Source: an uncultured Staphylococcaceae bacterium (GTDB lineage Bacteria; Bacillota_I; Bacilli_A; RFN20; CAG-826). Taken from it: a DNA stretch of 37,366 nt. The notes under the pieces are model-generated. The model saw only the letters and a program-made list of their open reading frames with translations. It made no database searches and was not told the origin of the DNA. The translations under genes were made by a program, and so were the position numbers. The first letter of the stretch is position 1, and every line of letters begins with the position of its first letter. Shown piece by piece: positions 5,459 to 23,730 of the stretch. The stretch is taken from NCBI GenBank assembly GCA_964552695.1, contig CAZKHP010000002.1:1-37366 (forward strand), given 5' to 3'.

Positions 5459-7032
5459 TAAAAGGACTTCCTTTCGAATCGATTTTTCTTGATGAAAATT
5501 ACGTATTCATCGTTGGGTAGAGGCCTACTATAATAATAGCCTTGAATGGCATCACAAGCCAGTTGCTCTTTCAAGATCTGAACCTGCTTCTTGCTTTGAA
5601 TACCTTCGGCGACCGCTTTCATTTCCAAAGCATGGGCCAATTTGATGATGGCTTTAACGACCTCGCGGGCCTTGGCATCCACTTCGATATCATCCAAGAA
5701 AGATTTATCGATTTTGATGGAGTTGACCGGCATGCGTTTGAGTGAGCTCATCGAGGAATAACCGGTTCCAAAGTCATCAATCGCCACTTGAATATTAAGC
5801 CCTTGAATTTGTTTCAGAATGGATAAGATGAAAAGGTTATCTTTTGCGGTTGCCGATTCGGTAATTTCCATTTCCAAAAGGAGCGGGTTTACTTTGTATT
5901 TGTCCAATGTGGCTTTCATAAAGTCGATCAAGTCAGTTTTGAAGATGGATTTCCGGGAAAGGTTAACCGAAATCGGAAGCAAACGTTCGCCCTTAGCTTT
6001 CCAGTTGGCGATATCCTGACACGCCATCTCAAAAACGTAACGGTCGATGGCGATGATCAGCTCTGATTGCTCGGCAAATGGGATGAAAGCGGCGGGAGAA
6101 AGAATTCCTTTCTTCGGGTGGCGCCAACGGATCAATGCTTCGGCCGAGAAGAAACGGTCAAGATTTAAATCGTACTTAGGCTGGTAGAAAAGTTCAAATT
6201 CGTGGTTTTTCATACCTTGGACGATTTCTTCGTAAAGCGGAAGGTCGTTGGTCCCGGCATTTTCAAGGGTTTGTTTATCATAAACGATGATGCCGCCGTG
6301 TTCGTTAAAGTTTCCGTAATCGCACGCCATGAGCGAACGACGGAGCATCTCTTCGGGACTCGTGTTCGGTTCGGTATGGAAATAGACGCCATAGGCAAAA
6401 TCACGGCCGATTTGTAGACTATTTTTTTCCAAACACTTTTTAATGTCCTCTTTGATACGGTCCAAAATCGGGTTGATATCATCCTCGCGCGTATAGCGCA
6501 CATAGAGTAAGAAATTTTCGTTAAAATCGTACCCGTAGAAGGAGTCGGGGATCTCGGCTAAGTTTTCTTCGACCACACCGAAGACCAGGGCGGGTACTTC
6601 GGAACCCATTTTGTAGCCTAATTGACTGATGGCGTCCTTTTTAATTTTATAGATTGAAAAGCTAACAACCGCGCCATGATTAATATCAAAATCGCGGATA
6701 TTTGCAAGGTTTTCTAAAAACTGCGGTTCCGATTTTGCGTTTTTTAAGGTGGTGAATTTTTTCGGGTTAAAACGGACCGAGGTTGTCTTTTTGGCTCGTC
6801 CGATTTCGAGCGAAACCATGATGTAACTTGAAACCAGAAATAAACCTGTCAAAAGTGAAAAAACAAGTGCCCAAGAGGGACGGATGGCCCCATTAAAAAA
6901 GCCCACCAAGAAAAGCACGACATAACTGATCGTTAAGACACCCAAAAAGATCACAAACACGAGGTTGATTGTTTTGCGAAATTTGGGTTCTTCGAACAGC
7001 CTAGTCTTTTTTTGTTTGATCAAGGGGGGCAA
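5458..7032 (-). CDS. Membrane-anchored c-di-GMP phosphodiesterase (degenerate GGDEF-like region plus intact EAL domain)
   Basis: Two N-terminal TM helices. The EAL signature set is present: AEALIRWRHP, SVNLS, EMEITES, AIDDFGTGYSS, IKIDKSF, AEGIQ, QGYYYSRP. The track start is TTG 7032. A second TTG at 7023 has better spacing to AAAGAGG. Either start overlaps the end of the sipW-like gene. Confidence 0.88.
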   Translation of the reverse strand: MPPLIKQKKTRLFEEPKFRKTINLVFVIFLGVLTISYVVLFLVGFFNGAIRPSWALVFSLLTGLFLVSSYIMVSLEIGRAKKTTSVRFNPKKFTTLKNAKSEPQFLENLANIRDFDINHGAVVSFSIYKIKKDAISQLGYKMGSEVPALVFGVVEENLAEIPDSFYGYDFNENFLLYVRYTREDDINPILDRIKEDIKKCLEKNSLQIGRDFAYGVYFHTEPNTSPEEMLRRSLMACDYGNFNEHGGIIVYDKQTLENAGTNDLPLYEEIVQGMKNHEFELFYQPKYDLNLDRFFSAEALIRWRHPKKGILSPAAFIPFAEQSELIIAIDRYVFEMACQDIANWKAKGERLLPISVNLSRKSIFKTDLIDFMKATLDKYKVNPLLLEMEITESATAKDNLFILSILKQIQGLNIQVAIDDFGTGYSSMSSLKRMPVNSIKIDKSFLDDIEVDAKAREVVKAIIKLAHALEMKAVAEGIQSKKQVQILKEQLACDAIQGYYYSRPLPNDEYVIFIKKNRFERKSF

Positions 7033-7810
7033 CCTCTTTCTTGGCTTCTTCTTCCATTTCCTTGCGAATGCGTTCCTTTTCCATTTCTTTGATAATGGAA
7101 AGTTTCTCTTGTTCTTTTATTTTAACAAACTCTTCATCGGATAACTCTTCTTCTGATAAAACTTTTTGGGCCGTTTCATTTTCTTCTGGCCGCATCTTGG
7201 CCGCCTTGACGAAATCCACGATTGAACTGGCAAAAACTGCTCCTAAAGGAATCAACACCAAAAACAGGGTGGTAATCGGGCTAGAGAAGAACTTTGAGAA
7301 AGCTCCCAAAGCGGCGCTCGAAGAGATGACTTTTCCCATGACAAATTCTTCGGGAACAAGATCGGAGTTGGCAAGCGTGCAACCTTGCGTTGGGCAGGTT
7401 TGGGCGTTTAAATTGTCCCCCAAACATTTGAAGGTCAAGGTGCCATCGCCATCATCGATAATTTCAATAATACGGTGAGTGATGATCAAGGAATCGTTGG
7501 TCCGGAAAAAGGTAATAATGTCGCCGTCTTTCGCTTCTGGAGTCGTAGAAGCCACAAGGGTATGCACGTCGACTTTTTTGACGATGACACCATTGCCGAC
7601 CGGAAGTTCGGGCTCCATGGAATCGGTCAAAACGACAAAGGATTGATAACCTAAGAAGGAACTGACACCAAAATTGTTGCGGGCCGAAATGAATCCGGTA
7701 ACTTGGACCACCAGTAACAATCCGACAAATGTTCCCAGAACCCAAGTGAGGATTTTCCCGAACAATGACTTCTTGGTTTTTACTTCTTTTTTCTCAACCT
7801 TTGTTTCCAT
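7001..7810 (-). CDS. sipW: SipW-type (ER/archaeal-type, S26B) signal peptidase I with an extra C-terminal Lys/Glu-rich cytoplasmic tail
   Basis: N-terminal TM helix. Ser box VVLTDSMEPELPVG, His box IITHRIIEI, GDNLN box, and a second TM helix (ITTLFLVLIPLGAVFASSIV). These are followed by a ~60-aa tail EEELSDEEFVKIKEQEKLSIIKEMEKERIRKEMEEEAKKE. RBS GAAGGAACAAATCATG. Confidence 0.82.
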   Translation of the reverse strand: METKVEKKEVKTKKSLFGKILTWVLGTFVGLLLVVQVTGFISARNNFGVSSFLGYQSFVVLTDSMEPELPVGNGVIVKKVDVHTLVASTTPEAKDGDIITFFRTNDSLIITHRIIEIIDDGDGTLTFKCLGDNLNAQTCPTQGCTLANSDLVPEEFVMGKVISSSAALGAFSKFFSSPITTLFLVLIPLGAVFASSIVDFVKAAKMRPEENETAQKVLSEEELSDEEFVKIKEQEKLSIIKEMEKERIRKEMEEEAKKEVAPLDQTKKD

Positions 7811-12998: not shown

Positions 12999-13853
12999 TT
13001 AGGCTTCGCTGGTTTCGTCGAGAAGGGCAGAGATGACCATGCCGAAGAGCATGCTGGCTCCGACAGGAGGCAGGTAGGTGCAGTCGGGATCATCGCCTTC
13101 AAGCCAAATCACGATGGTGTAGCGGATAACGACATCCGGATCAAGATGCAGGTAATTGTAGTTCACGATATTGCTGGCAGATTCAAACACTTCCGCCCGG
13201 ACACTGTTCTCAGGCTTTGAGGCGCTGCAGGTATAGGGAGGAACGCTTAAACCATTTCCGACACACTCGCCATTGATGCGCGTGTTATTGTCATCGTAAA
13301 TTGCATAGTTCGTGGTTTTTGCAAAGGTGCGGTAATTGTGTGTGACTTCTTCACCCACGACATTTTCATAAAGACGCACACGGATGTATTCTTCGATAGG
13401 AACGGCACCCTCAATGATGTTTTCTCCCTGACTTAACGACAAGGTTGCCGAGAAGTCGACCGGAGCATTGCCTTGGTTCTTTAAAAAGAAGGTGTAGGCA
13501 AAATAGGTGGAATACATGAGGATGCCATCCTCATCATAAACATCTCCGTTATGCGATCCCAGACCATTGACATCGTCCAGGACTTCGTGCGCGGGTAAAT
13601 AATCAACTGATTCCGCACGGGCAGCGTCGAGGTTTGAGGCCCGAAGCAAACTCGTTTTTTTGGTAAAGTTCGCGTCCGTCGATATGGTGAGTGACGCGCG
13701 GTTCTGTTCAAGCTCAACGGTGTACCGACCGATATTGGTCCCCAGGTAGGAGATTATGACGAAAGTAGCAATGGTTAATGCGCTTGCGGCGGAAACGATT
13801 GCTGCGATTTTTCGTCTTTTCCTTGTTTGGGCGTACTCAGTTGGGTAGATCAT
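12999..13853 (-). CDS. Paralog P5 (284 aa) with a divergent N-terminus, probably uncleaved; membrane-anchor or base-subunit candidate
   Basis: First gene after riboswitch 1. The N-terminus is MIYPTEYAQTRKRRKIAAIVSAASALTIATFVIISYLG, with a basic stretch and a TM helix; ATFVII replaces GTFAWF. It retains the family C-terminal block IVIWLEGDDPDC and a camelysin-like FFLKNQGNAPVDF strand. Confidence 0.65.
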   Translation of the reverse strand: MIYPTEYAQTRKRRKIAAIVSAASALTIATFVIISYLGTNIGRYTVELEQNRASLTISTDANFTKKTSLLRASNLDAARAESVDYLPAHEVLDDVNGLGSHNGDVYDEDGILMYSTYFAYTFFLKNQGNAPVDFSATLSLSQGENIIEGAVPIEEYIRVRLYENVVGEEVTHNYRTFAKTTNYAIYDDNNTRINGECVGNGLSVPPYTCSASKPENSVRAEVFESASNIVNYNYLHLDPDVVIRYTIVIWLEGDDPDCTYLPPVGASMLFGMVISALLDETSEA

Positions 13854-14018: not shown

Positions 14019-14101
14019 AAATAAAAATAGATGCTAACCAATCATTGCCCGGAACTGGGAAGTACTACTCTCATTCCATTTTTGGCAACTGGCTACCATC
14101 T
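14019..14101 (-). terminator. Expression-platform terminator of riboswitch 1
   Basis: On the minus strand, AGAUGGUAGCCA-GUUGCC (the 3' part of the aptamer) can pair with GGCAAU-(GAU)-UGGUUAGCAUCU. That gives about 18 bp with one G-G mismatch and one 3-nt bulge. The 34-nt apical region has its own GGAAG/CUUCC hairpin. The stem is followed directly by AUUUUUAUUUC. Confidence 0.6.
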
Positions 14102-14162
14102 CTCGTTTGAGTTAGGCCCTATAGCTTTGCGTCGCTAAGTTTCCTTAGTTTTGCTATTGTCA
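14084..14162 (-). promoter_or_regulatory. c-di-GMP-I (GEMM-I) riboswitch aptamer, copy 1
   Basis: The minus-strand RNA is UGACAAUAGCAAAACUAAG-GAAA-CUUAGCGACGCAAAGCUAUAGGGCCUAACUCAAACGAGAGAUGGUAGCCAGUUGCC. It carries the GEMM-I hallmarks: GCAAA(A)C, a hairpin capped by a GAAA tetraloop, ACGCAAAGC, a CCUAAC...GAUGG segment resembling the 11-nt tetraloop receptor, and GGUAGC. By eye it aligns with the Vc2 aptamer. Confidence 0.82.
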
Positions 14163-14168
14163 ACATCC

Positions 14169-14196
14169 ATTATAGAGGTTTTTGCGTTTCTGTCAA
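14169..14196 (-). promoter_or_regulatory. Consensus sigma-A-type promoter driving riboswitch 1 and the ~9.5-kb operon
   Basis: Minus strand: TTGACA (14196..14191) - 16 nt - TATAAT (14174..14169). The aptamer starts within about 10 nt downstream. Confidence 0.75.
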
Positions 14197-14583: not shown

Positions 14584-14970
14584 CTACTTTTTGGCTTCTT
14601 TAGCCTTAGCTTCTTCCATTTCCTTGAGAATCTCTTCGCGGGCTTGTCTTTTGGCTTCAGCAATAAGTTCTTCGTTCGAAAGCGTCGACTTTTTTGCTTT
14701 GTTTTCGTTGTAGAGCGTTTTGATCAGCAAATAGATGTTGAGGAAGAAAAGCGTAATCAACGGAAGGACGATCAGGATGAACATCCAAGCCGGGTTAGCT
14801 TGCAGCCAGGAGATGAACTTCATGAAGGCGCCAGCTTCGGCAGGGATGATGTTGGTGGCGAACATGGCGAACAAGGAGACTGTAAGCAAGAAAACGATGA
14901 CCACAATTTCAGCGACCACTAAAATGGTCGATAGCGACTTATTTTTTCCGGACAGTAATCCTTTACTCAT
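14584..14970 (-). CDS. Small two-TM membrane protein with a Lys/Glu-rich C-terminal tail
   Basis: 128-aa ORF with RBS AGGAGAATTAAAATG. Two hydrophobic helices, then the tail NEELIAEAKRQAREEILKEMEEAKAKEAKK. That tail resembles those of the SipW-like peptidase and the 468-aa protein. Confidence 0.7.
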   Translation of the reverse strand: MSKGLLSGKNKSLSTILVVAEIVVIVFLLTVSLFAMFATNIIPAEAGAFMKFISWLQANPAWMFILIVLPLITLFFLNIYLLIKTLYNENKAKKSTLSNEELIAEAKRQAREEILKEMEEAKAKEAKK

Positions 14971-15012
14971 TTTAATTCTCCTATATGAAAATATATCGCA
15001 TACAATATAACT

Positions 15013-15056
15013 AAAAAAAACTAGGGTGTCAACTGGATAAGCCAGTGAAACCCTAG
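15013..15056 (-). terminator. Strong intrinsic terminator after paralog P4
   Basis: Minus strand: CUAGGGUUUCACUGG-CUUAU-CCAGUUGACACCCUAG followed by eight U. Confidence 0.8.
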
Positions 15057-15088
15057 TAATTTTGTGGAAAATAGGCTATTTGACTAGA

Positions 15089-15997
15089 TTACGCAGCGAC
15101 ACCGTAGATGTCAATGCTGAAATCGAAGACTCCGCCGAGGGCGCCGCCACCAGCAGTGACGTTTTCGCATTCGGGATCTTCGCCTTCAATCCAGGCGCGG
15201 ATCGTGATGTCATCGGAGTAGTCGGGAGTGGCAGCGTCGGTACCATAGAGGGTAACGATCGGTTTGACGTGAGCGGCGGTGGCAAGAGCGGTCGTGGTGT
15301 AAGTGGTCAACGAACCGGCGTGGAAGTTGTCGGTATCATCGAAAGCAGCGGTTTGGGCGACCGAATCAAAACCAGAAACGGTTTTCCAAGTTTTGGCAGC
15401 ATCAGCTTTAACATATTTGTATGCGGCATCGTCAGCATCCGGTGTCCAAATGAAGACTGGGACGTTGGCTTCGTCAAGAATCGCAATGCGGGCGCAGTTA
15501 ACGGCCGCTTCATCTTGAGGATCATCCGCAGTGTGCGGGGTGATCGTGGTGGCTCCGCCAACATAGACGTTCATGTTGCCGGTAGCAACGGAACTTTGAG
15601 AAATCGTCAAGGTAAAGTCGACATAATATCCATCGGCAGCGCCAATACCCGAGGTAAGAAGGGTGGTCACGCTATCGGCCGTGGAAGAATCGGTATCAGC
15701 AGAGTTCCAAATGGGTTTGTAGAAGTTCGCACCATTACCGGAAATATCGGTAATTCTGTGAACGCCGGAAACGGAAATGTTTTGTTCGTCAGCGGATTGG
15801 TGGGCGACAGTGGTCAGTAAGCTGGATTTCCAAGCAACGGTCAAGTCAGATGAGCTCGAATAGACTTCGGCGGACGAATAGTTGATTTGAGCATTACGAA
15901 CGGTTGTGAACCAAGCGAACGTGGAAGCCGAGGCGGCAGCAGCTGTCAGAACGAGCATGCCGGCGGCACTAATTAAAATCTTATTCTTCTTATTCAT
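15089..15997 (-). CDS. Secreted SipW-signal paralog P4 (302 aa), monocistronic; major-subunit candidate
   Basis: N-terminus MNKKNKILISAAGMLVLTAAAASASTFAWFTTVRNA. Mature part is rich in Ala/Thr/Ser/Asp. C-terminal block IRAWIEGEDPEC. Very strong RBS GAGGAGGATTTTATTCATG, with its own promoter and terminator. Confidence 0.75.
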   Translation of the reverse strand: MNKKNKILISAAGMLVLTAAAASASTFAWFTTVRNAQINYSSAEVYSSSSDLTVAWKSSLLTTVAHQSADEQNISVSGVHRITDISGNGANFYKPIWNSADTDSSTADSVTTLLTSGIGAADGYYVDFTLTISQSSVATGNMNVYVGGATTITPHTADDPQDEAAVNCARIAILDEANVPVFIWTPDADDAAYKYVKADAAKTWKTVSGFDSVAQTAAFDDTDNFHAGSLTTYTTTALATAAHVKPIVTLYGTDAATPDYSDDITIRAWIEGEDPECENVTAGGGALGGVFDFSIDIYGVAA

Positions 15998-16138
15998 GAA
16001 TAAAATCCTCCTCTGGATTACCCTTTCATTATTGAAGGGTTCATGCTGTCAAAGTTAATGGGACTTTGACATAATTAACGGGCAATTTCGCTAATTATTG
16101 CAATACTCGAGGGGGCGAGATTGTTAATAAGCAATTAC

Positions 16139-16167
16139 ATTATATATCGGTCTTTTAAAAAGTGCAA
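16139..16167 (-). promoter_or_regulatory. Sigma-A-type promoter of paralog P4
   Basis: Minus strand: TTGCAC - 17 nt - TATAAT. The ~135-nt leader contains two clean hairpins (GUCAAAGU...ACUUUGAC and ACCCUUC...GAAAGGGU). No GEMM-like motif is present. Confidence 0.6.
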
Positions 16168-16321
16168 GTTTTTTGTTTTTTGTTAAAAAGCACTTATTTA
16201 ATCGATACTTTTTCCAAATTTTGTTTTGAATTTTAGATTGTTTGGCTTATTTGATTGTCCACTATTTTCTTACAAATTTCATACAACCCATGGACTTTAT
16301 TCTATACTTATACACACGTGT

Positions 16322-16353
16322 GCGAAAAAAGAAAAAGGATCCCGGAAGGATCC
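16322..16353 (-). terminator. Intrinsic terminator ending the riboswitch-2 operon
   Basis: Minus strand: GGAUCC-UUCCG-GGAUCC followed by UUUUUCUUUUUU. It starts about 30 nt after the stop at 16385. Confidence 0.75.
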
Positions 16354-16384
16354 AAAAAAGTTTGTTAGACAAGTGTCCAAAGAT

Positions 16385-17227
16385 TTAAGAGATATTGACT
16401 GACAACTCGGTGATTGAGAATGAGAGATTTTTATAGACATTGGATGTTCCTTCGACATCGGAAAAGTAATAATCATGACCGCTACTGGTATAAGAATAGG
16501 AATAATACGTTGATGGTGCATTGCTGAATTCGATCGTAAAAAAGAAAATGATTTTATCCGCTGGAACTTCATCAAAATCGAGAACATCTTGCGCGAGGGT
16601 AATGTTGGAAGGTCCGGATGCAGCTGTTTGATTGAAACGATCGGTTTGACTGGTCGATGTCACAAACGCATTGGCTCCGGTTGTAATGCTGCCGCTATTG
16701 CCATCGATCGCCGTGGAATAAACATTGATTGCCTGCGCGAGGTTAATCGGGGTATTGGTGGTTGCGTTGTAGAACGTCGTGGACGGAACCGCAACGTAGT
16801 CGGTGAGCCTTAAAAACACGGTTTTATCAATAGCAAAATCGCCGGTCACTTCCAAAGCATAGGTAAATCGAAGACTGGGGTATTGCGCATTGATGATGAC
16901 GGTTTGAATGCCGTTCAGATAGGGATCTTCGCTGATTGGCAGGAATTGCGTATCGTAATTGTCGACCGTGACGATATCCGAAGGACTAAGAGCAACTTCT
17001 GGGCTTTGGTACCCATTGGGCGTTCCGTTGGAACCATAGTTCTTGGTGAAGTATTTGAGTTCGTAGGAAATATCGCCGGAGGCTTGAACGGTCATGGCGG
17101 TCACCCCGGCCTCCCGTTTAAACGAAAACCAGGCATAGGTCAAGTATAAAAAGGATGTCAAAGAAATCGCCGCCGACAACGTGGTGATCACCAAATTGAT
17201 CTTCAGTTTTTTCGATGTCAATGCCAT
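16385..17227 (-). CDS. Secreted SipW-signal paralog P3 (280 aa)
   Basis: N-terminus MALTSKKLKINLVITTLSAAISLTSFLYLTYAWFSFKRE. It lacks the W-x-E-G-x-D block. It starts 2 nt after the stop of the 759-aa gene. Confidence 0.68.
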   Translation of the reverse strand: MALTSKKLKINLVITTLSAAISLTSFLYLTYAWFSFKREAGVTAMTVQASGDISYELKYFTKNYGSNGTPNGYQSPEVALSPSDIVTVDNYDTQFLPISEDPYLNGIQTVIINAQYPSLRFTYALEVTGDFAIDKTVFLRLTDYVAVPSTTFYNATTNTPINLAQAINVYSTAIDGNSGSITTGANAFVTSTSQTDRFNQTAASGPSNITLAQDVLDFDEVPADKIIFFFTIEFSNAPSTYYSYSYTSSGHDYYFSDVEGTSNVYKNLSFSITELSVNIS

Positions 17228-20467: not shown

Positions 20468-20532
20468 TCTTAATCTTTGGAGGCCCTTTAGCTTTGCGTC
20501 GCTAGATTACTCTAGGTTTGCTATTTACTAAC
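20454..20532 (-). promoter_or_regulatory. c-di-GMP-I (GEMM-I) riboswitch aptamer, copy 2
   Basis: The minus-strand RNA is GUUAGUAAAUAGCAAACCUAGA-GUAA-UCUAGCGACGCAAAGCUAAAGGGCCUCCAAAGAUUAAGAGGUAGCCAGUUGCC. It has the same conserved blocks as copy 1: AAUAGCAAA, CGACGCAAAGCUA, AGGGCCU and GGUAGCCAGUUGCC. The first hairpin shows compensatory changes (CUAGA/UCUAG here vs CUAAG/CUUAG in copy 1). Confidence 0.82.
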
Positions 20533-20569: not shown

Positions 20570-23500
20570 CTACTTGCCCCCGCCCACGAATTTCAGGAAG
20601 TCCGAAATAGACATTGGCTTGGCAAAATAGAAGCCTTGCACCATGCGAATATTGAGCCGTTTCACGATGTTCGCTTGATCTTCGGTTTCGATTCCTTCGA
20701 TGATGATGTTGTTGTTCATTTCCCGGATTTTCGCGCGCAAATGGTCAAAGCTTAAGAAAGCCGAGCTGTCGCTTTCAATCCCGCGGACAAGGTCTCTCTC
20801 GAACTTTACACAGTTGAAAGGGAGCGAAGCGGCAATTTGGAAATCAAGCACTCGATCGGTATAGTTATCAAGACAGAAAACAATGTTATTTCCTTGCAAA
20901 TCCTTCATGAATTTGCGAGTTTCGTTTTCTTTTTCGGCGACGGTTTTTTCTGAAATTTCAAGTTGCAAGAACCCTTTTGGAAACTTGTAACGAGAAACGA
21001 TTTGTTTGACAGCTTCGCGGAATCCGGAATCGAGCACCGAATCGGTTGAGACGTTGACTGCAAGGCGTTCTACGCCATTTTGTCGGAATAGATCAAAACC
21101 GTAGTTTTTCCACATTTCCCCGACATTGTATAGAAGTGCCTTTTCGATATCGACAAGAAGATGGGCTTCACTGGCAGTTGCCAAAAATTCACTCGTTGAA
21201 ATATATCCGCGGTTTGGATCATAAAGACGGGAAACGAGTTCTCCTCCGACGGGTTCGGTATTGTTGATGTTCATGATGGGGTTGATGTAAATTTCAAACT
21301 TCTGCTTTGTGACCGCTTCGCGGATCAGGTCAAGCACATAACCTTTCCGTTCGGCTTTACGTGTCTTTTTATTGTCTGCGACATACATCATGTCGTTGCC
21401 GGCTTTTTGGGTACTCTTAAAACCGGCCGTCAGCATGGCTTCAATTGCCGCAGCATCGCGGACATCGCCGGGGTATGCGGCAATCGTCATCCAGAAATGA
21501 GGACTCTTAGGATCATTTCCTCCGATTTCTCTTGCGGTCGCATAAATGGATTCAGCCATTGAGAAAGCGGCGGCGCGCGTTGCTTCAGGGAAAGAGACGA
21601 AAAGCGTATTTCCGCTATAGCGATAAATGAAGTCGCCAAAACTGGCGTTTTCAAGTTTTCGGCAGAGTAAGTTCAATGTTGCGGACATGACTTCATCGGG
21701 CTCGAAAGAGACCGTGGGAGGAACATTGCATAAAGAAATCGAGAATAGGTATCCGTTACGGTCATCGCTAACAGCATTTTGAACATCCAGCTCCAGGCGT
21801 CTTCGATTTTTAATCGAAAAGTCCATATCCAAATAGCGTGGTTCGGTTTCCGCTAACGCCGCTCTTAAGGGGCGAATGGAGATGGCGGTTTCGTGAGAGT
21901 TGGCGGAAAAATTCATCAAGGAACGTAAGAAAGGCAAAGGTGAAATCAAAGGCATCGGAATTTCTTTGGAACCCACTTTCAAGGGGCAATTCGGACAGAT
22001 TGAATCACGGTTATGAAAAACCTTATAACAACGCTCGCCGAGTGTCTTTTGCGATTTATAGAAGGAAGCCAAGTTTGAAGAAAGATAGTTTAATGAAAAA
22101 GTGTTTTTGTCGATGACATAAACATAACGTTCATCCATTTTCAAAACATGCTCGAGCAGTTCATTCTTGCTTCGCTCGTAGTCAGAATGGACAACTTCCT
22201 TTATAAAGGTACCCAATAATGCACCGGCGAAATTCAAAATGGTTTGTTCACTCACGGTCAGAGAACGGTTTTTCTGGCTGGAGCAAAAGTAAACAAGGCC
22301 ATAGGTTCGCTCTTTATTGCCGATGACTTGGAAATGGAATGTTTTGATATCGAGATTGGTCAAAATTTTCCCAAGGCTGATAGGATAGGAATCAACATCG
22401 GATCCATAAACTGCTCCGGAAGCATCTACGGCCGCAAAGATGGGTTGAAGGTCATCAAAAGTAATGCGTTTGAGTTTTTGGAAGGTCGGATGTTCATGGA
22501 GACGGCAATCTTCGAAGCCTACCCGAAATTCGTCTAGCGAAGCATCCAAAAGCAAGTAACCAGCATTATGAAAACCAAACTGACTGGAAATTTTGAGAAG
22601 GTTTTGCCGAATAAATTTGTCGAAACTATCTTTGTTTTGCACATTTTTGGCTTCGAGAATCAAAGCTTCGGCGTTGAGCAAAAACAAACGGCCGACGCTT
22701 TCGAAAGTTTCACGATGGGAAATATCACTTTGCCGAATTGCGGGAAGGTAAATGAAGTAGTCCTTACTTTTCTCAAGGGCGAAAAGCGCGTCTCTTTCAA
22801 GGTCACGCCGGGTTGTGTAAGGATAAATAGCGCCACCGATACGGATTTGAGCAACTTCCATTCCTTTTCGGTTCTTTTCAACTTTCGTCGGAACAAAGTG
22901 AATGTAGAAATTTTCGATTTTTGCCTTCAATAAACTTAAGGAATTGACTTTGGGTAAAAACAAGGCAATCGTGTTCGGAAGGTATTCACCGATGACCCCT
23001 TCTTCAAAATATTCGCGCAATCCTTTAACGAGTTCGCCCATAAAAGGCTGAATATCAGGGTTCAAAATCCGAATCAAAATAAACGCGGAACGATAGGACG
23101 CGTTGGCTTGTGAAAGGAAGAAGACGGCTTGATTATATTCGCCTTTGGATAGCAGTCCGCCGGCCTTGATTCTTTTTTCAACTTCTTCCGGAATCGGTTC
23201 GCCGCTGATCGTGGGTTCCAGTTTGCTGTAACGTTCCAAAAGTTCGTTAACGTCATTTTCCAAAACAGCGAGCTCTTCAATGTTCTTATTGCCATCTTTT
23301 GGTTTTTCGGCGAGCGTTAAGCCATAATAAAGTTTGGTGGAAATTCCCGCCAAACCCTTGTTAATGGCCGAGTTGATGGTCATCACATGGCGGTAAATCA
23401 AAAAACCAAAAAGTCCATTTAGAACCAATGTCAAGATGAGTAAGCCCACCAAAAGGAAAGCATTGTTAATTGTAAAATAGTTTATGACAATGGCGGCCGA

Positions 23501-23578
23501 AACCAAAACCACCGAAGAAATCATTCCGAGGATAAAGCTGGCGACAGTTTGGTCAAGGTCGTATTTAAGAGTTTTCAT
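20570..23578 (-). CDS. Large membrane-anchored signalling protein with degenerate GGDEF-like modules, a Cys4 motif and a partly degenerate C-terminal EAL domain
   Basis: Two TM helices after MKTLKYDL. There are GGDEF-like regions with YLPNTIALF and YSGNTLFVSF in place of GGDEF, and a CYKVFHNRDSICPNCP motif. The EAL-like end reads GGELVSRLY, NVS, LEISE, CLDNYTD (for DDFGTG), VKFERD, IEGIE, QGFYFAKP. I chose the start at M33 of the track ORF. The track start is GTG 23674 without an RBS, and a TATAAT box lies inside that extension. Confidence 0.75.
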   Translation of the reverse strand: MKTLKYDLDQTVASFILGMISSVVLVSAAIVINYFTINNAFLLVGLLILTLVLNGLFGFLIYRHVMTINSAINKGLAGISTKLYYGLTLAEKPKDGNKNIEELAVLENDVNELLERYSKLEPTISGEPIPEEVEKRIKAGGLLSKGEYNQAVFFLSQANASYRSAFILIRILNPDIQPFMGELVKGLREYFEEGVIGEYLPNTIALFLPKVNSLSLLKAKIENFYIHFVPTKVEKNRKGMEVAQIRIGGAIYPYTTRRDLERDALFALEKSKDYFIYLPAIRQSDISHRETFESVGRLFLLNAEALILEAKNVQNKDSFDKFIRQNLLKISSQFGFHNAGYLLLDASLDEFRVGFEDCRLHEHPTFQKLKRITFDDLQPIFAAVDASGAVYGSDVDSYPISLGKILTNLDIKTFHFQVIGNKERTYGLVYFCSSQKNRSLTVSEQTILNFAGALLGTFIKEVVHSDYERSKNELLEHVLKMDERYVYVIDKNTFSLNYLSSNLASFYKSQKTLGERCYKVFHNRDSICPNCPLKVGSKEIPMPLISPLPFLRSLMNFSANSHETAISIRPLRAALAETEPRYLDMDFSIKNRRRLELDVQNAVSDDRNGYLFSISLCNVPPTVSFEPDEVMSATLNLLCRKLENASFGDFIYRYSGNTLFVSFPEATRAAAFSMAESIYATAREIGGNDPKSPHFWMTIAAYPGDVRDAAAIEAMLTAGFKSTQKAGNDMMYVADNKKTRKAERKGYVLDLIREAVTKQKFEIYINPIMNINNTEPVGGELVSRLYDPNRGYISTSEFLATASEAHLLVDIEKALLYNVGEMWKNYGFDLFRQNGVERLAVNVSTDSVLDSGFREAVKQIVSRYKFPKGFLQLEISEKTVAEKENETRKFMKDLQGNNIVFCLDNYTDRVLDFQIAASLPFNCVKFERDLVRGIESDSSAFLSFDHLRAKIREMNNNIIIEGIETEDQANIVKRLNIRMVQGFYFAKPMSISDFLKFVGGGK

Positions 23579-23730
23579 AGATTTTCTTTCTTTTTCTTTA
23601 TTTATTATATTACATCGGTCTTGAACCAAAAGAAGAAACCTGCAAAATTTAGGCTTTTCCGCTTTTTTGCTCACGAACTCATAGATTTTCTACCATGGAT
23701 GAAAGGTATGCGTGATAAAATACAATCATC

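Follow-up and report, generated by a model that had tools for sequence, protein, structure and literature searches.

A predicted c-di-GMP-I ON riboswitch ahead of a putative SipW-associated surface protein operon in an uncultured Staphylococcaceae bacterium

Among the described riboswitches for cyclic di-GMP (c-di-GMP), Bc2 in the cap/cbpA leader of Bacillus thuringiensis is the closest characterised counterpart of the element presented here, and it has been proven to be an ON switch both in vitro and in vivo (PMC4933901). The present element is the first of two aptamers of the c-di-GMP-I (GEMM-I) class on a stretch of 37,366 nucleotides (nt) from an uncultured Staphylococcaceae bacterium (contig CAZKHP010000002.1 of assembly GCA_964552695.1), which was analysed at its full length and is called the window below. 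This aptamer, copy 1, precedes an operon for putative secreted fibre proteins. It resembles Bc2 in the combination of a class I aptamer in a Bacillota 5′ untranslated region, an intrinsic terminator that is predicted to be relieved by the ligand, and a putative surface adhesion target. However, Bc2 controls a single collagen-adhesin gene that directly follows its terminator (PMC4933901), whereas copy 1 is followed by a further structured leader and an operon of at least 9 kb, and has a paralogous second unit in its vicinity.

Other described GEMM-I RNAs share part of this design. Vc2 from Vibrio cholerae has the same two-hairpin fold, a GAAA loop docking in a receptor (the docking being predicted for copy 1) and the equivalents of A47 and C92, but it differs by a G at position 20 (G20), picomolar affinity, the Vc2R receptor variant and a clear P1 helix, whereas copy 1 has an A at this position (A20), a putative, near-canonical 11-nt receptor and no evident P1. 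An A20 is also present in Cbe 1-2, which likewise comes from a member of the Bacillota, and in the Vc2 variant G20A, although the gene context of these RNAs is different (PMC6140456). The Geobacter GEMM-Ib RNAs (Gs1761, Gmet_0970) are A20 ON switches with terminators and extracellular-structure targets as well. They are highly selective for cyclic GMP-AMP (cGAMP) and go together with a Hypr GGDEF enzyme that has Ser for Asp, whereas the window encodes the canonical Asp and has c-di-GMP enzymes as neighbours. Moreover, Bc1 resembles copy 1 in that its GEMM-I aptamer is followed by a structured leader of unusual length, which may control both transcription and translation, but it has two terminators 28 bp apart, while copy 1 has one terminator followed by covarying hairpins that are not terminators (PMC11218506). 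As for the proteins, the tapA-sipW-tasA operon of Bacillus and the archaeal bundling pili are comparable in that an archaeal-type SipW-like peptidase is found beside secreted β-sandwich proteins. The operon in the window differs from tapA-sipW-tasA by the addition of a McrB-like AAA+ protein and a DUF2357-like partner, and similarity could not be detected at the sequence level. Control of the Bacillus operon is exerted by SinR-type repressors, and no riboswitch is known to take part in it.

The copy 1 aptamer and its overlapping terminator

Copy 1 is best explained as a transcriptional ON riboswitch of the c-di-GMP-I class, an explanation to which a probability of about 0.75 is given. All elements of the riboswitch, its leader and its operon are on the minus strand, and coordinates are those of the window. 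Where related loci from other contigs have to be told apart, they are given with an L number, and the window itself with W. Copy 1 consists of the following elements:

14196-14191, minus strand: −35 hexamer TTGACA, kept in orthologous leaders
14174-14169, minus strand: −10 hexamer TATAAT, separated from the −35 hexamer by a 16-nt spacer
14165-14081, minus strand: c-di-GMP-I (GEMM-I) aptamer, Rfam RF01051, 67.1 bits, model positions 1-87
14155, minus strand: equivalent of Vc2 G20 (A14 in Gs1761), the base that reads the ligand's alpha nucleobase; here an A
14154-14129, minus strand: first hairpin, with G-C/C-G pairs, an AAA internal loop, a CUAAG/CUUAG stem and a GAAA tetraloop
14143-14140, minus strand: GAAA tetraloop, placed by the RF01051 alignment
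14128, minus strand: A47 equivalent, the first A of the AAA linker after GACGC
14116-14111, minus strand: 5′ half of the receptor-like motif, CCUAAC, exact in the closest orthologs only
14100-14096, minus strand: 3′ half of the receptor-like motif, GAUGG, also within the terminator 5′ arm
14085, minus strand: putative C92 equivalent, two positions past the U that closes the second hairpin, inside the terminator stem
14101-14029, minus strand: terminator hairpin, with 5′ arm 14101-14084, apical part 14078-14050 and 3′ arm 14049-14029
14028-14019, minus strand: U-tract AUUUUUAUUU, invariant in orthologs

The RF01051 covariance model matches copy 1 over its full length (E-value 3.4e-11, 67.1 bits against a gathering score of 35), and the two RF01051 aptamers are the sole Rfam matches in the window. 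An earlier note on this DNA, based on its letters alone, had assigned both copies to this class, and the model accepts both, at 67.1 and 57.1 bits. The succession of promoter, aptamer, overlapping terminator and gene is that of a 5′ cis-regulatory position with a competing expression platform. The promoter, which had been read as TTGACA-N16-TATAAT, is indeed present at 14196-14169. Perfect TTGACA-N16-18-TATAAT sites occur twice in the whole window, once ahead of each aptamer, compared to 0.03 expected by chance. From the promoter spacing, transcription is predicted to start at about 14163-14161. An extra TTGACA hexamer at 14158-14163 (minus strand), which is shared with the closest orthologs only, overlaps the predicted start and the 5′ junction of the aptamer and is probably coincidental.

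The first hairpin, with the string GC-AAA-(A)CUAAG-GAAA-CUUAG(C)-GAC-GC-AAA, fits the description of the family, apart from one A·C mismatch at the base of its 6-bp stem. The stem is CUAAG/CUUAG in copy 1 and CUAUG/CAUAG in L081, which is a compensatory change. The compensatory difference that had been pointed out between the two copies of the window (CUAAG/CUUAG versus CUAGA/UCUAG) amounts to two pair swaps, and the four blocks described as common to both were recovered as AAUAGCAAA, CUAGCGACGCAAAGCUA, AGGGCCU and GGUAGCCAGUUGCC. The C92 equivalent was assigned from the consensus UgCC tail in the RF01051 alignment and from the junction layout of Gs1761, G74-C75 (PMC6274999).

As the earlier note had stated, copy 1 combines its GAAA loop with CCUAAC...GAUGG, and copy 2 has a GUAA loop and no such motif; its CUAA block is missing. 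Compared to the 11-nt receptor CCUAAG/UAUGG, the motif of copy 1 is identical at 9 of 11 positions, with C-G replacing G·U. In orthologs, the 5′ half of the motif reads CCUUAAC (L001) or CCUUACC (L082). The proposed co-variation of tetraloop and receptor agrees with the rule stated for GEMM RNAs by Weinberg 2007 (PMC1950547) and with the collected aptamers, in which 4 (strict definition) to 7 (loose definition) of the 13 with a GAAA loop have the receptor-like motif, compared to 0 of the 19 with another loop, although these sequences are related and the counts are descriptive only. Since GAUGG is also part of the terminator arm, its invariance is no independent evidence for a receptor.

The aptamer shares its 3′ strand with a terminator. 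In the minimum free energy fold of the RNA from 14162 to 14016 (−37.2 kcal/mol), 14101-14084 pairs with 14049-14029 through 5 plus 12 pairs, with one G·G mismatch and a 3-nt bulge, after which AUUUUUAUUU follows; the helix of about 18 bp that had been proposed is recovered in this form. The stable hairpin 14101-14029 thus stands directly before a U-tract, as in an intrinsic terminator, and a simple terminator scan passed over it solely because its loop is longer than 8 nt. When folded alone, the terminator segment has an energy of −25.9 kcal/mol; it is atypically long and its base is AU-rich. The aptamer-enforced fold has an energy of −30.0 kcal/mol, so that the terminator is ahead by approximately 7 kcal/mol without ligand, a gap that is estimated to be within reach of nanomolar ligand binding. 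Transcripts shortened at the 3′ side to end between 14078 and 14040 fold in an aptamer-like way, and those that extend as far as 14030 adopt the terminator fold instead.

The C92 equivalent, the 3′ half of the receptor-like motif and the base of the second hairpin are all part of the terminator 5′ arm. Because this arm is the aptamer 3′ strand, the ligand-bound aptamer and the terminator are mutually exclusive, which gives the ON architecture. The ON logic of the earlier note is borne out in that the strand is shared in the same way in copy 1, in copy 2 and in nearly all of 31 distinct aptamers found before homologous genes, where a hairpin with the aptamer strand GCCAGUUGC... as its 5′ arm is followed by a U-run. 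The ON reading is well supported, as in uncultured Bacillota some 30 related aptamers that precede homologous genes have this layout too. According to Weinberg 2007 (PMC1950547), 78 of 322 GEMMs have a terminator that overlaps the second hairpin on its 3′ side. Moreover, 96.4% of the cells at terminator pairs are paired in 6 distinct orthologs, versus 18-51% in slid controls, and the 3′ arm is invariant across orthologs with proteins that are just 63-66% identical, while the loops vary.

In addition to these pairings, the terminator base and U-tract at 14030-14017 (CUAUUUUUAUUUCA) can pair with the purine-rich terminator loop at 14079-14065 (UGGAAUGAGAGUAG), both on the minus strand. This helix is 94% paired in 6 orthologs versus 48-67% in slid controls, includes a UAG/CUA to UGG/CCA swap, and is exclusive with the apical terminator helix.

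In the proposed mechanism, the leader RNA would be started from a strong sigma-A-type promoter, some 7 nt ahead of the aptamer. At low levels of the messenger, the 3′ arm 14049-14029 would invade the aptamer 3′ strand 14101-14084, the long hairpin followed by AUUUUUAUUU would form, and the polymerase would stop after approximately 135-143 nt. Binding of c-di-GMP would hold the two aptamer hairpins together, helped by the contact between GAAA loop and receptor. The 5′ arm would then be occupied, termination efficiency would be expected to drop and the polymerase would read on. The read-through transcript would pass the structured leader into the operon of at least 9 kb, with its TasA-superfamily-like secreted proteins, its SipW-like peptidase and its EAL phosphodiesterase. 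Since an ON switch would co-transcribe this phosphodiesterase, c-di-GMP would presumably be lowered again, which amounts to negative feedback of the system on its own signal.

Ligand identity and alternative explanations

Position 20 and A47 were mapped according to the architecture of Gs1761 (PMC6274999) and the description in PMC6140456. Of the bases that contact the ligand in this family, G20 reads G-alpha, A47 intercalates and C92 pairs with G-beta. The family consensus AAaGGCAAA aligns to AAUAGCAAA in both copies of the window (cmscan), and the unpaired base 5′ of the first hairpin is an A. Among 32 distinct related aptamers, position 20 is an A in 16, which include all those of the wider clade of the window, and a G in the other 16, which are found in Clostridia-type metagenome-assembled genomes (MAGs). 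The aptamers L011 1937-2019 (A20) and L016 1880-1962 (G20) are otherwise identical over the compared stretch and both stand ahead of orthologous genes. This natural swap speaks for a single ligand, whether position 20 is an A or a G.

Binding data have been published for similar RNAs. The Vc2 G20A variant binds c-di-GMP with a dissociation constant (Kd) of 53 nM and cGAMP with a Kd of 120 nM, while Cbe 1-2 from Clostridium beijerinckii, which has a natural A20, binds them with 30 and 463 nM, respectively; both RNAs hold c-di-GMP through an adenine that is protonated, and G20 RNAs reject cGAMP with a Kd of 10 μM (PMC6140456). Judged from these comparisons, A20 would not rule out c-di-GMP binding, and would bear on the ligand subclass rather than on membership of the GEMM-I family. 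Because the equivalent of G20 is an A, the affinity for c-di-GMP is expected to be in the range of tens of nM and not of pM, and 3′3′-cGAMP may bind too. The signal is likely to be c-di-GMP, read at lower affinity than by Vc2. This ligand is favoured by the natural G/A swap and by the canonical GGDEF, EAL and HD-GYP genes nearby: the operon has an EAL protein with intact motifs, a GGDEF domain is fused to HHE...GYP, and a second EAL protein is close. The GGDEF domain is the only one in the window and has the canonical Asp, in GHETGD, and an intact GGDEF motif. A Hypr-type GGDEF, for which Ser348 served as criterion, is ruled out by the Asp at the specificity position. When a cGAMP synthase was looked for in the 37-kb window, neither a Hypr GGDEF nor a DncV/CD-NTase-like domain was found.

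A number of observations nevertheless weigh against the c-di-GMP ON switch. The A20 of both copies is the hallmark of cGAMP-sensing GEMM-Ib RNAs. The terminator base beside the U-tract is AU-rich and contains the G·G mismatch. A search for an outer P1 helix gave no convincing and no conserved one, with at most some 3 pairs (14163-14161/14084-14082) that are not kept in L001, L082 or L096; the RF01051 model itself has no P1. Close orthologs show no covariation in the terminator, as 20 of 23 pairs are invariant, which is conservation only. Support comes from distant lineages, where the arms differ yet stay complementary to the aptamer strand, such as GCCAGUUGC/GCGACUGGC in L018 versus GCCGGUUGC/GCAGCCGGC in L068; the arm sequences in L097, L005 and L099 are AGGCAGUUGGC, AGGCAACUGGC and AGGCAAUUGGC. 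Furthermore, the structured leader downstream of the terminator may override or gate the riboswitch output, and Bc1 illustrates that, if its expression platform is long, even a well-formed GEMM-I aptamer may give no response in vivo (PMC11218506).

The identity of the base at position 20 in both copies and in all 16 A20 aptamers of the wider clade would also fit a riboswitch with the same ON architecture but with bispecific or 3′3′-cGAMP-preferring, GEMM-Ib-like aptamers, the signal then being cGAMP or both messengers. Some HD-GYP enzymes degrade cGAMP, and an HD-GYP domain is encoded beside the operon. A20 is what lets GEMM-I RNAs bind cGAMP, and an A20G change turns a Geobacter cGAMP riboswitch c-di-GMP-selective; Cbe 1-2, a clostridial RNA in which A20 is natural, binds either ligand (PMC6140456). 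Such a signal is nevertheless rather unlikely, given that the only cyclase of the window carries Asp and not the Ser of Hypr GGDEFs, that the window has no DncV- or CD-NTase-like gene, and that EAL domains flank both operons. Moreover, Cbe 1-2 and Vc2 G20A bind c-di-GMP at least as well as cGAMP (PMC6140456), and L016 and L011 alternate G and A in otherwise identical aptamers, while G20 RNAs reject cGAMP.

The remaining explanations concern the output. Many GEMM-I riboswitches, for example those before flagellar genes, are OFF switches, in which the ligand favours termination. For copy 1 this is highly improbable, as the terminator 5′ arm is the aptamer 3′ strand including the C92 equivalent, the folds are mutually exclusive, and no separate anti-terminator strand lies between aptamer and terminator. 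It is improbable too, though less so, that the aptamer is intact without switching in the cell, the hairpin being a constitutive attenuator and expression being set by a downstream element or a protein factor. The absence of an evident P1 helix and the presence downstream of a conserved structured element and a possible helix sequestering the Shine–Dalgarno (SD) region would suit this explanation, and Bc1 indeed binds c-di-GMP without a change in downstream expression (PMC11218506). However, there is strong purifying selection on the aptamer positions and on the complementary 3′ arm in two paralogous copies and their orthologs, the overlap of aptamer and terminator recurs in distant lineages with different arms, and copy 1 has a single terminator, in contrast to the dual terminator that masks Bc1. 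The c-di-GMP-responsive ON riboswitch is the explanation kept in the following.

The structured leader and the operon downstream

Between the end of the terminator and the start codon, there are 166 nt of leader. They contain the following elements:

14015-13909, minus strand: structured leader element of 107 nt, with a 14-bp hairpin A and a long hairpin B
13888-13881, minus strand: candidate anti-SD sequence CCUUUUCG, weak, from single-sequence folds
13868-13863, minus strand: candidate SD sequence GAAAGG, weak, from single-sequence folds

Nine orthologous leaders, down to 44% protein identity, were aligned. In this alignment, RNAalifold predicts a hairpin B that is closed by GUG/CAC and has an invariant apical UAAUGG, and compensatory changes are present at 18 of the 28 predicted pairs. 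With a trimmed alignment, 90.5% of the cells are paired versus 34-48% in slid controls, and double changes are found at 17 pairs versus 2-4. A covariance model of the 107-nt element gives 10 matches with E-values from 1e-16 to 1e-24, all in orthologous leaders, and no further copies were found with it in 588 kb of window and related loci. A search of the window and six orthologous leaders gave no Rfam family for the element at E≤10. The element is not a conserved open reading frame: a leader peptide starting in UAAUGG was ruled out, since the AUG frames run for 24 codons in W, 10 in L001 and 2 in L082. Further downstream, a CUUCYUU/UUUUCG stretch pairs with the SD region in L001, L095, L082 and L096, and the W group has an alternative hairpin, both according to weak single-sequence folds.

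Because the covarying element lies between terminator and start codon, the riboswitch is perhaps not the sole checkpoint. The best guess is that the downstream element acts as a checkpoint for translation or stability. A tentative and rather doubtful extension of this guess is a leader with two checkpoints, in which an A20 GEMM-I ON switch (possibly for cGAMP as well as c-di-GMP) would gate transcription, and the 107-nt element, as a new regulatory RNA that binds a ligand or protein, would gate translation via the SD-sequestering helix. If true, the TasA-like fibre operon would need two signals.

The operon consists of the following genes, the last line giving the gene beyond it:

12999-13853, minus strand: first gene, 284 amino acids (aa), with an N-terminal transmembrane helix and a β-sandwich, member of a large uncharacterised family
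12977-11889 and 11872-10772, minus strand: two secreted proteins with GTFAWF...WLEGxD..C
10761-9241, minus strand: membrane McrB-like AAA+ protein (NCBIfam McrB, E-value 1e-4; AAA_5 in the L097 ortholog)
9229-7823, minus strand: 468-aa protein with a long Lys/Glu-rich tail, orthologs of which weakly match DUF2357
7810-7001, minus strand: SipW-like signal peptidase, 269 aa (TIGR02228, a model of archaeal-type signal peptidases, 51.9 bits versus a cut-off of 51.85)
7032-5458, minus strand: EAL phosphodiesterase with all catalytic motifs intact
5458-4733, minus strand: PNP_UDP_1 protein, last listed gene of the operon
4675-2624, minus strand: protein with five transmembrane helices, PAS, GGDEF and HD-GYP, after a 57-nt gap with a promoter-like site at 4694-4666

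The gene order of the operon is conserved in L082, L084 and L097, and its SipW-like, EAL and PNP_UDP_1 genes are coupled by overlaps. No convincing internal terminator was found in the operon, and the first good minus-strand terminator after it is at 2614-2597, past the GGDEF-HD-GYP gene. The SipW-like protein (7001-7810) additionally matches NF046067 (SipW) with an E-value of 1.4e-18 but under the cut-off of this family, and Pfam Peptidase_S26 below threshold. A location in this operon is unexpected for the McrBC-like pair (10761-9241 and 9229-7823), which is also conserved in L082, L084 and L097.

The putative structural proteins have no Pfam, NCBIfam or PDB sequence match, including none to Pfam Peptidase_M73. 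Several of them have an N-terminal ...GTFAWF... segment together with a C-terminal WLEGxDPxC motif, and in profile comparisons this C-terminal motif is the sole feature that the family of the 284-aa protein shares with the other operon proteins. At 50% identity, the family counts 886 representatives, and most of them belong to uncultured Bacilli and Clostridia of gut, rumen and freshwater. An AlphaFold2 model of the 284-aa protein, built on an alignment of 103 sequences, has a predicted local distance difference test score (pLDDT) of 89.5; an earlier model (14-sequence alignment, pLDDT 52) was set aside as unusable. The top PDB folds found with Foldseek are the TasA fibre (8aur_A, E-value 1.7e-4) and the Pyrobaculum bundling pilus (7ueg_A, E-value 3.8e-4), with a probability of 0.97 but a template modelling score of just 0.22-0.31. 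This model suggests that the protein of the first gene is TasA-superfamily-like.

The earlier note had concluded that c-di-GMP co-induces two fibre operons. The fibre half of this statement is strengthened by the SipW-like peptidase and by the TasA-fibre and bundling-pilus folds, which suggest a function in fibre formation. The co-induction half has to be qualified, since the conserved structured leader with its possible SD-sequestering helix follows the terminator and a second condition may be needed. In the literature searched, no paper was found that links a c-di-GMP riboswitch to a SipW/TasA-type operon.

The second copy, related loci and significance

The unit of copy 2 and its operon is paralogous to that of copy 1 and located 6 kb upstream. 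Its elements are:

20564-20536, minus strand: promoter TTGACA-N17-TATAAT with perfect hexamers
20532-20451, minus strand: copy 2 aptamer, RF01051, 57.1 bits, with a GUAA loop, without the receptor, and with A20 at 20522
20466-20433, minus strand: terminator using the aptamer 3′ strand, with its U-tract at 20432-20423

Copy 2 has the same design in a compact form, in which GUAGCC-A-GUUGCC pairs with GGUAGCGGCUGC, and UUUUUUAUUU comes next, some 20 nt upstream of its start codon. Just upstream, at 20570-23674 (minus strand), a membrane protein of 1034 aa is encoded with a C-terminal EAL domain that has degenerate motifs (ELV for EAL and LDNYTD for DDFGTG). Given these motifs, the protein may sense c-di-GMP instead of acting as an enzyme, and its position is conserved in L081 and L083. 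Within the gene cluster of copy 2, the region 14970-16390 (minus strand) contains a terminator-like hairpin (16353-16337), a promoter-like site (16326-16299) and TTGACA-17-TATATT (15032-15004), which precede an Ala/Thr-rich protein of 302 aa and a membrane protein of 128 aa. Judged from these sites, the cluster may form more than one transcription unit.

Orthologs of the first gene of the copy 1 operon (12999-13853) range from 92 to 30% identity. A profile scan with one genome per species gave 192 relatives, nearly all of them from MAGs labelled Bacilli, Erysipelotrichaceae, Clostridia or Oscillospiraceae, and RF01051 accepts 28 aptamers in 19 related loci with 49-72 bits; the scores of the orthologous leaders are 49-73 bits. 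The locus with two operons is syntenic in the contigs that carry orthologs, in the order EAL, riboswitch 2, five genes, riboswitch 1, three secreted proteins, AAA+, DUF2357-like protein, SipW-like peptidase, EAL, PNP_UDP_1 and GGDEF-HD. In L096 (2620-2775), the second hairpin of the aptamer has an insertion of about 70 nt that resembles a partial duplication of the aptamer 3′ strand, and the Rfam match has two alternative extents, 2620-2705 (49 bits) and 2620-2775 (53 bits). Lastly, c-di-GMP-I aptamers occur in pairs, either tandem or divergent, in distant homologous loci, where each of them overlaps a terminator of its own and precedes genes that belong to the same family:

L021, 1965-2150
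L022, 2817-3011
L047, 1689-2011
L068, 989-1983 and 6504-6577

As a riboswitch, copy 1 is nothing new in kind: GEMM-I ON switches with overlapping terminators were predicted in 2007 and have been proven for Bc2. The A at the ligand-contact position and the second conserved RNA structure in the leader are new details that were previously unreported. As A20 and G20 both occur naturally in aptamers that precede orthologous genes, this series is useful for the role of position 20 outside Geobacter, and the analysis also brings to light a structured leader RNA that is small, new and shows good covariation. A built-in negative feedback loop is suggested by the EAL phosphodiesterase of the operon, which, together with the GGDEF-HD-GYP protein (4675-2624), hints at feedback on the inducing signal. 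The value of the locus lies in these features of its context, and also in that it would connect c-di-GMP, directly by an RNA, with SipW-associated surface proteins that are TasA-superfamily-like and form a large, uncharacterised family.

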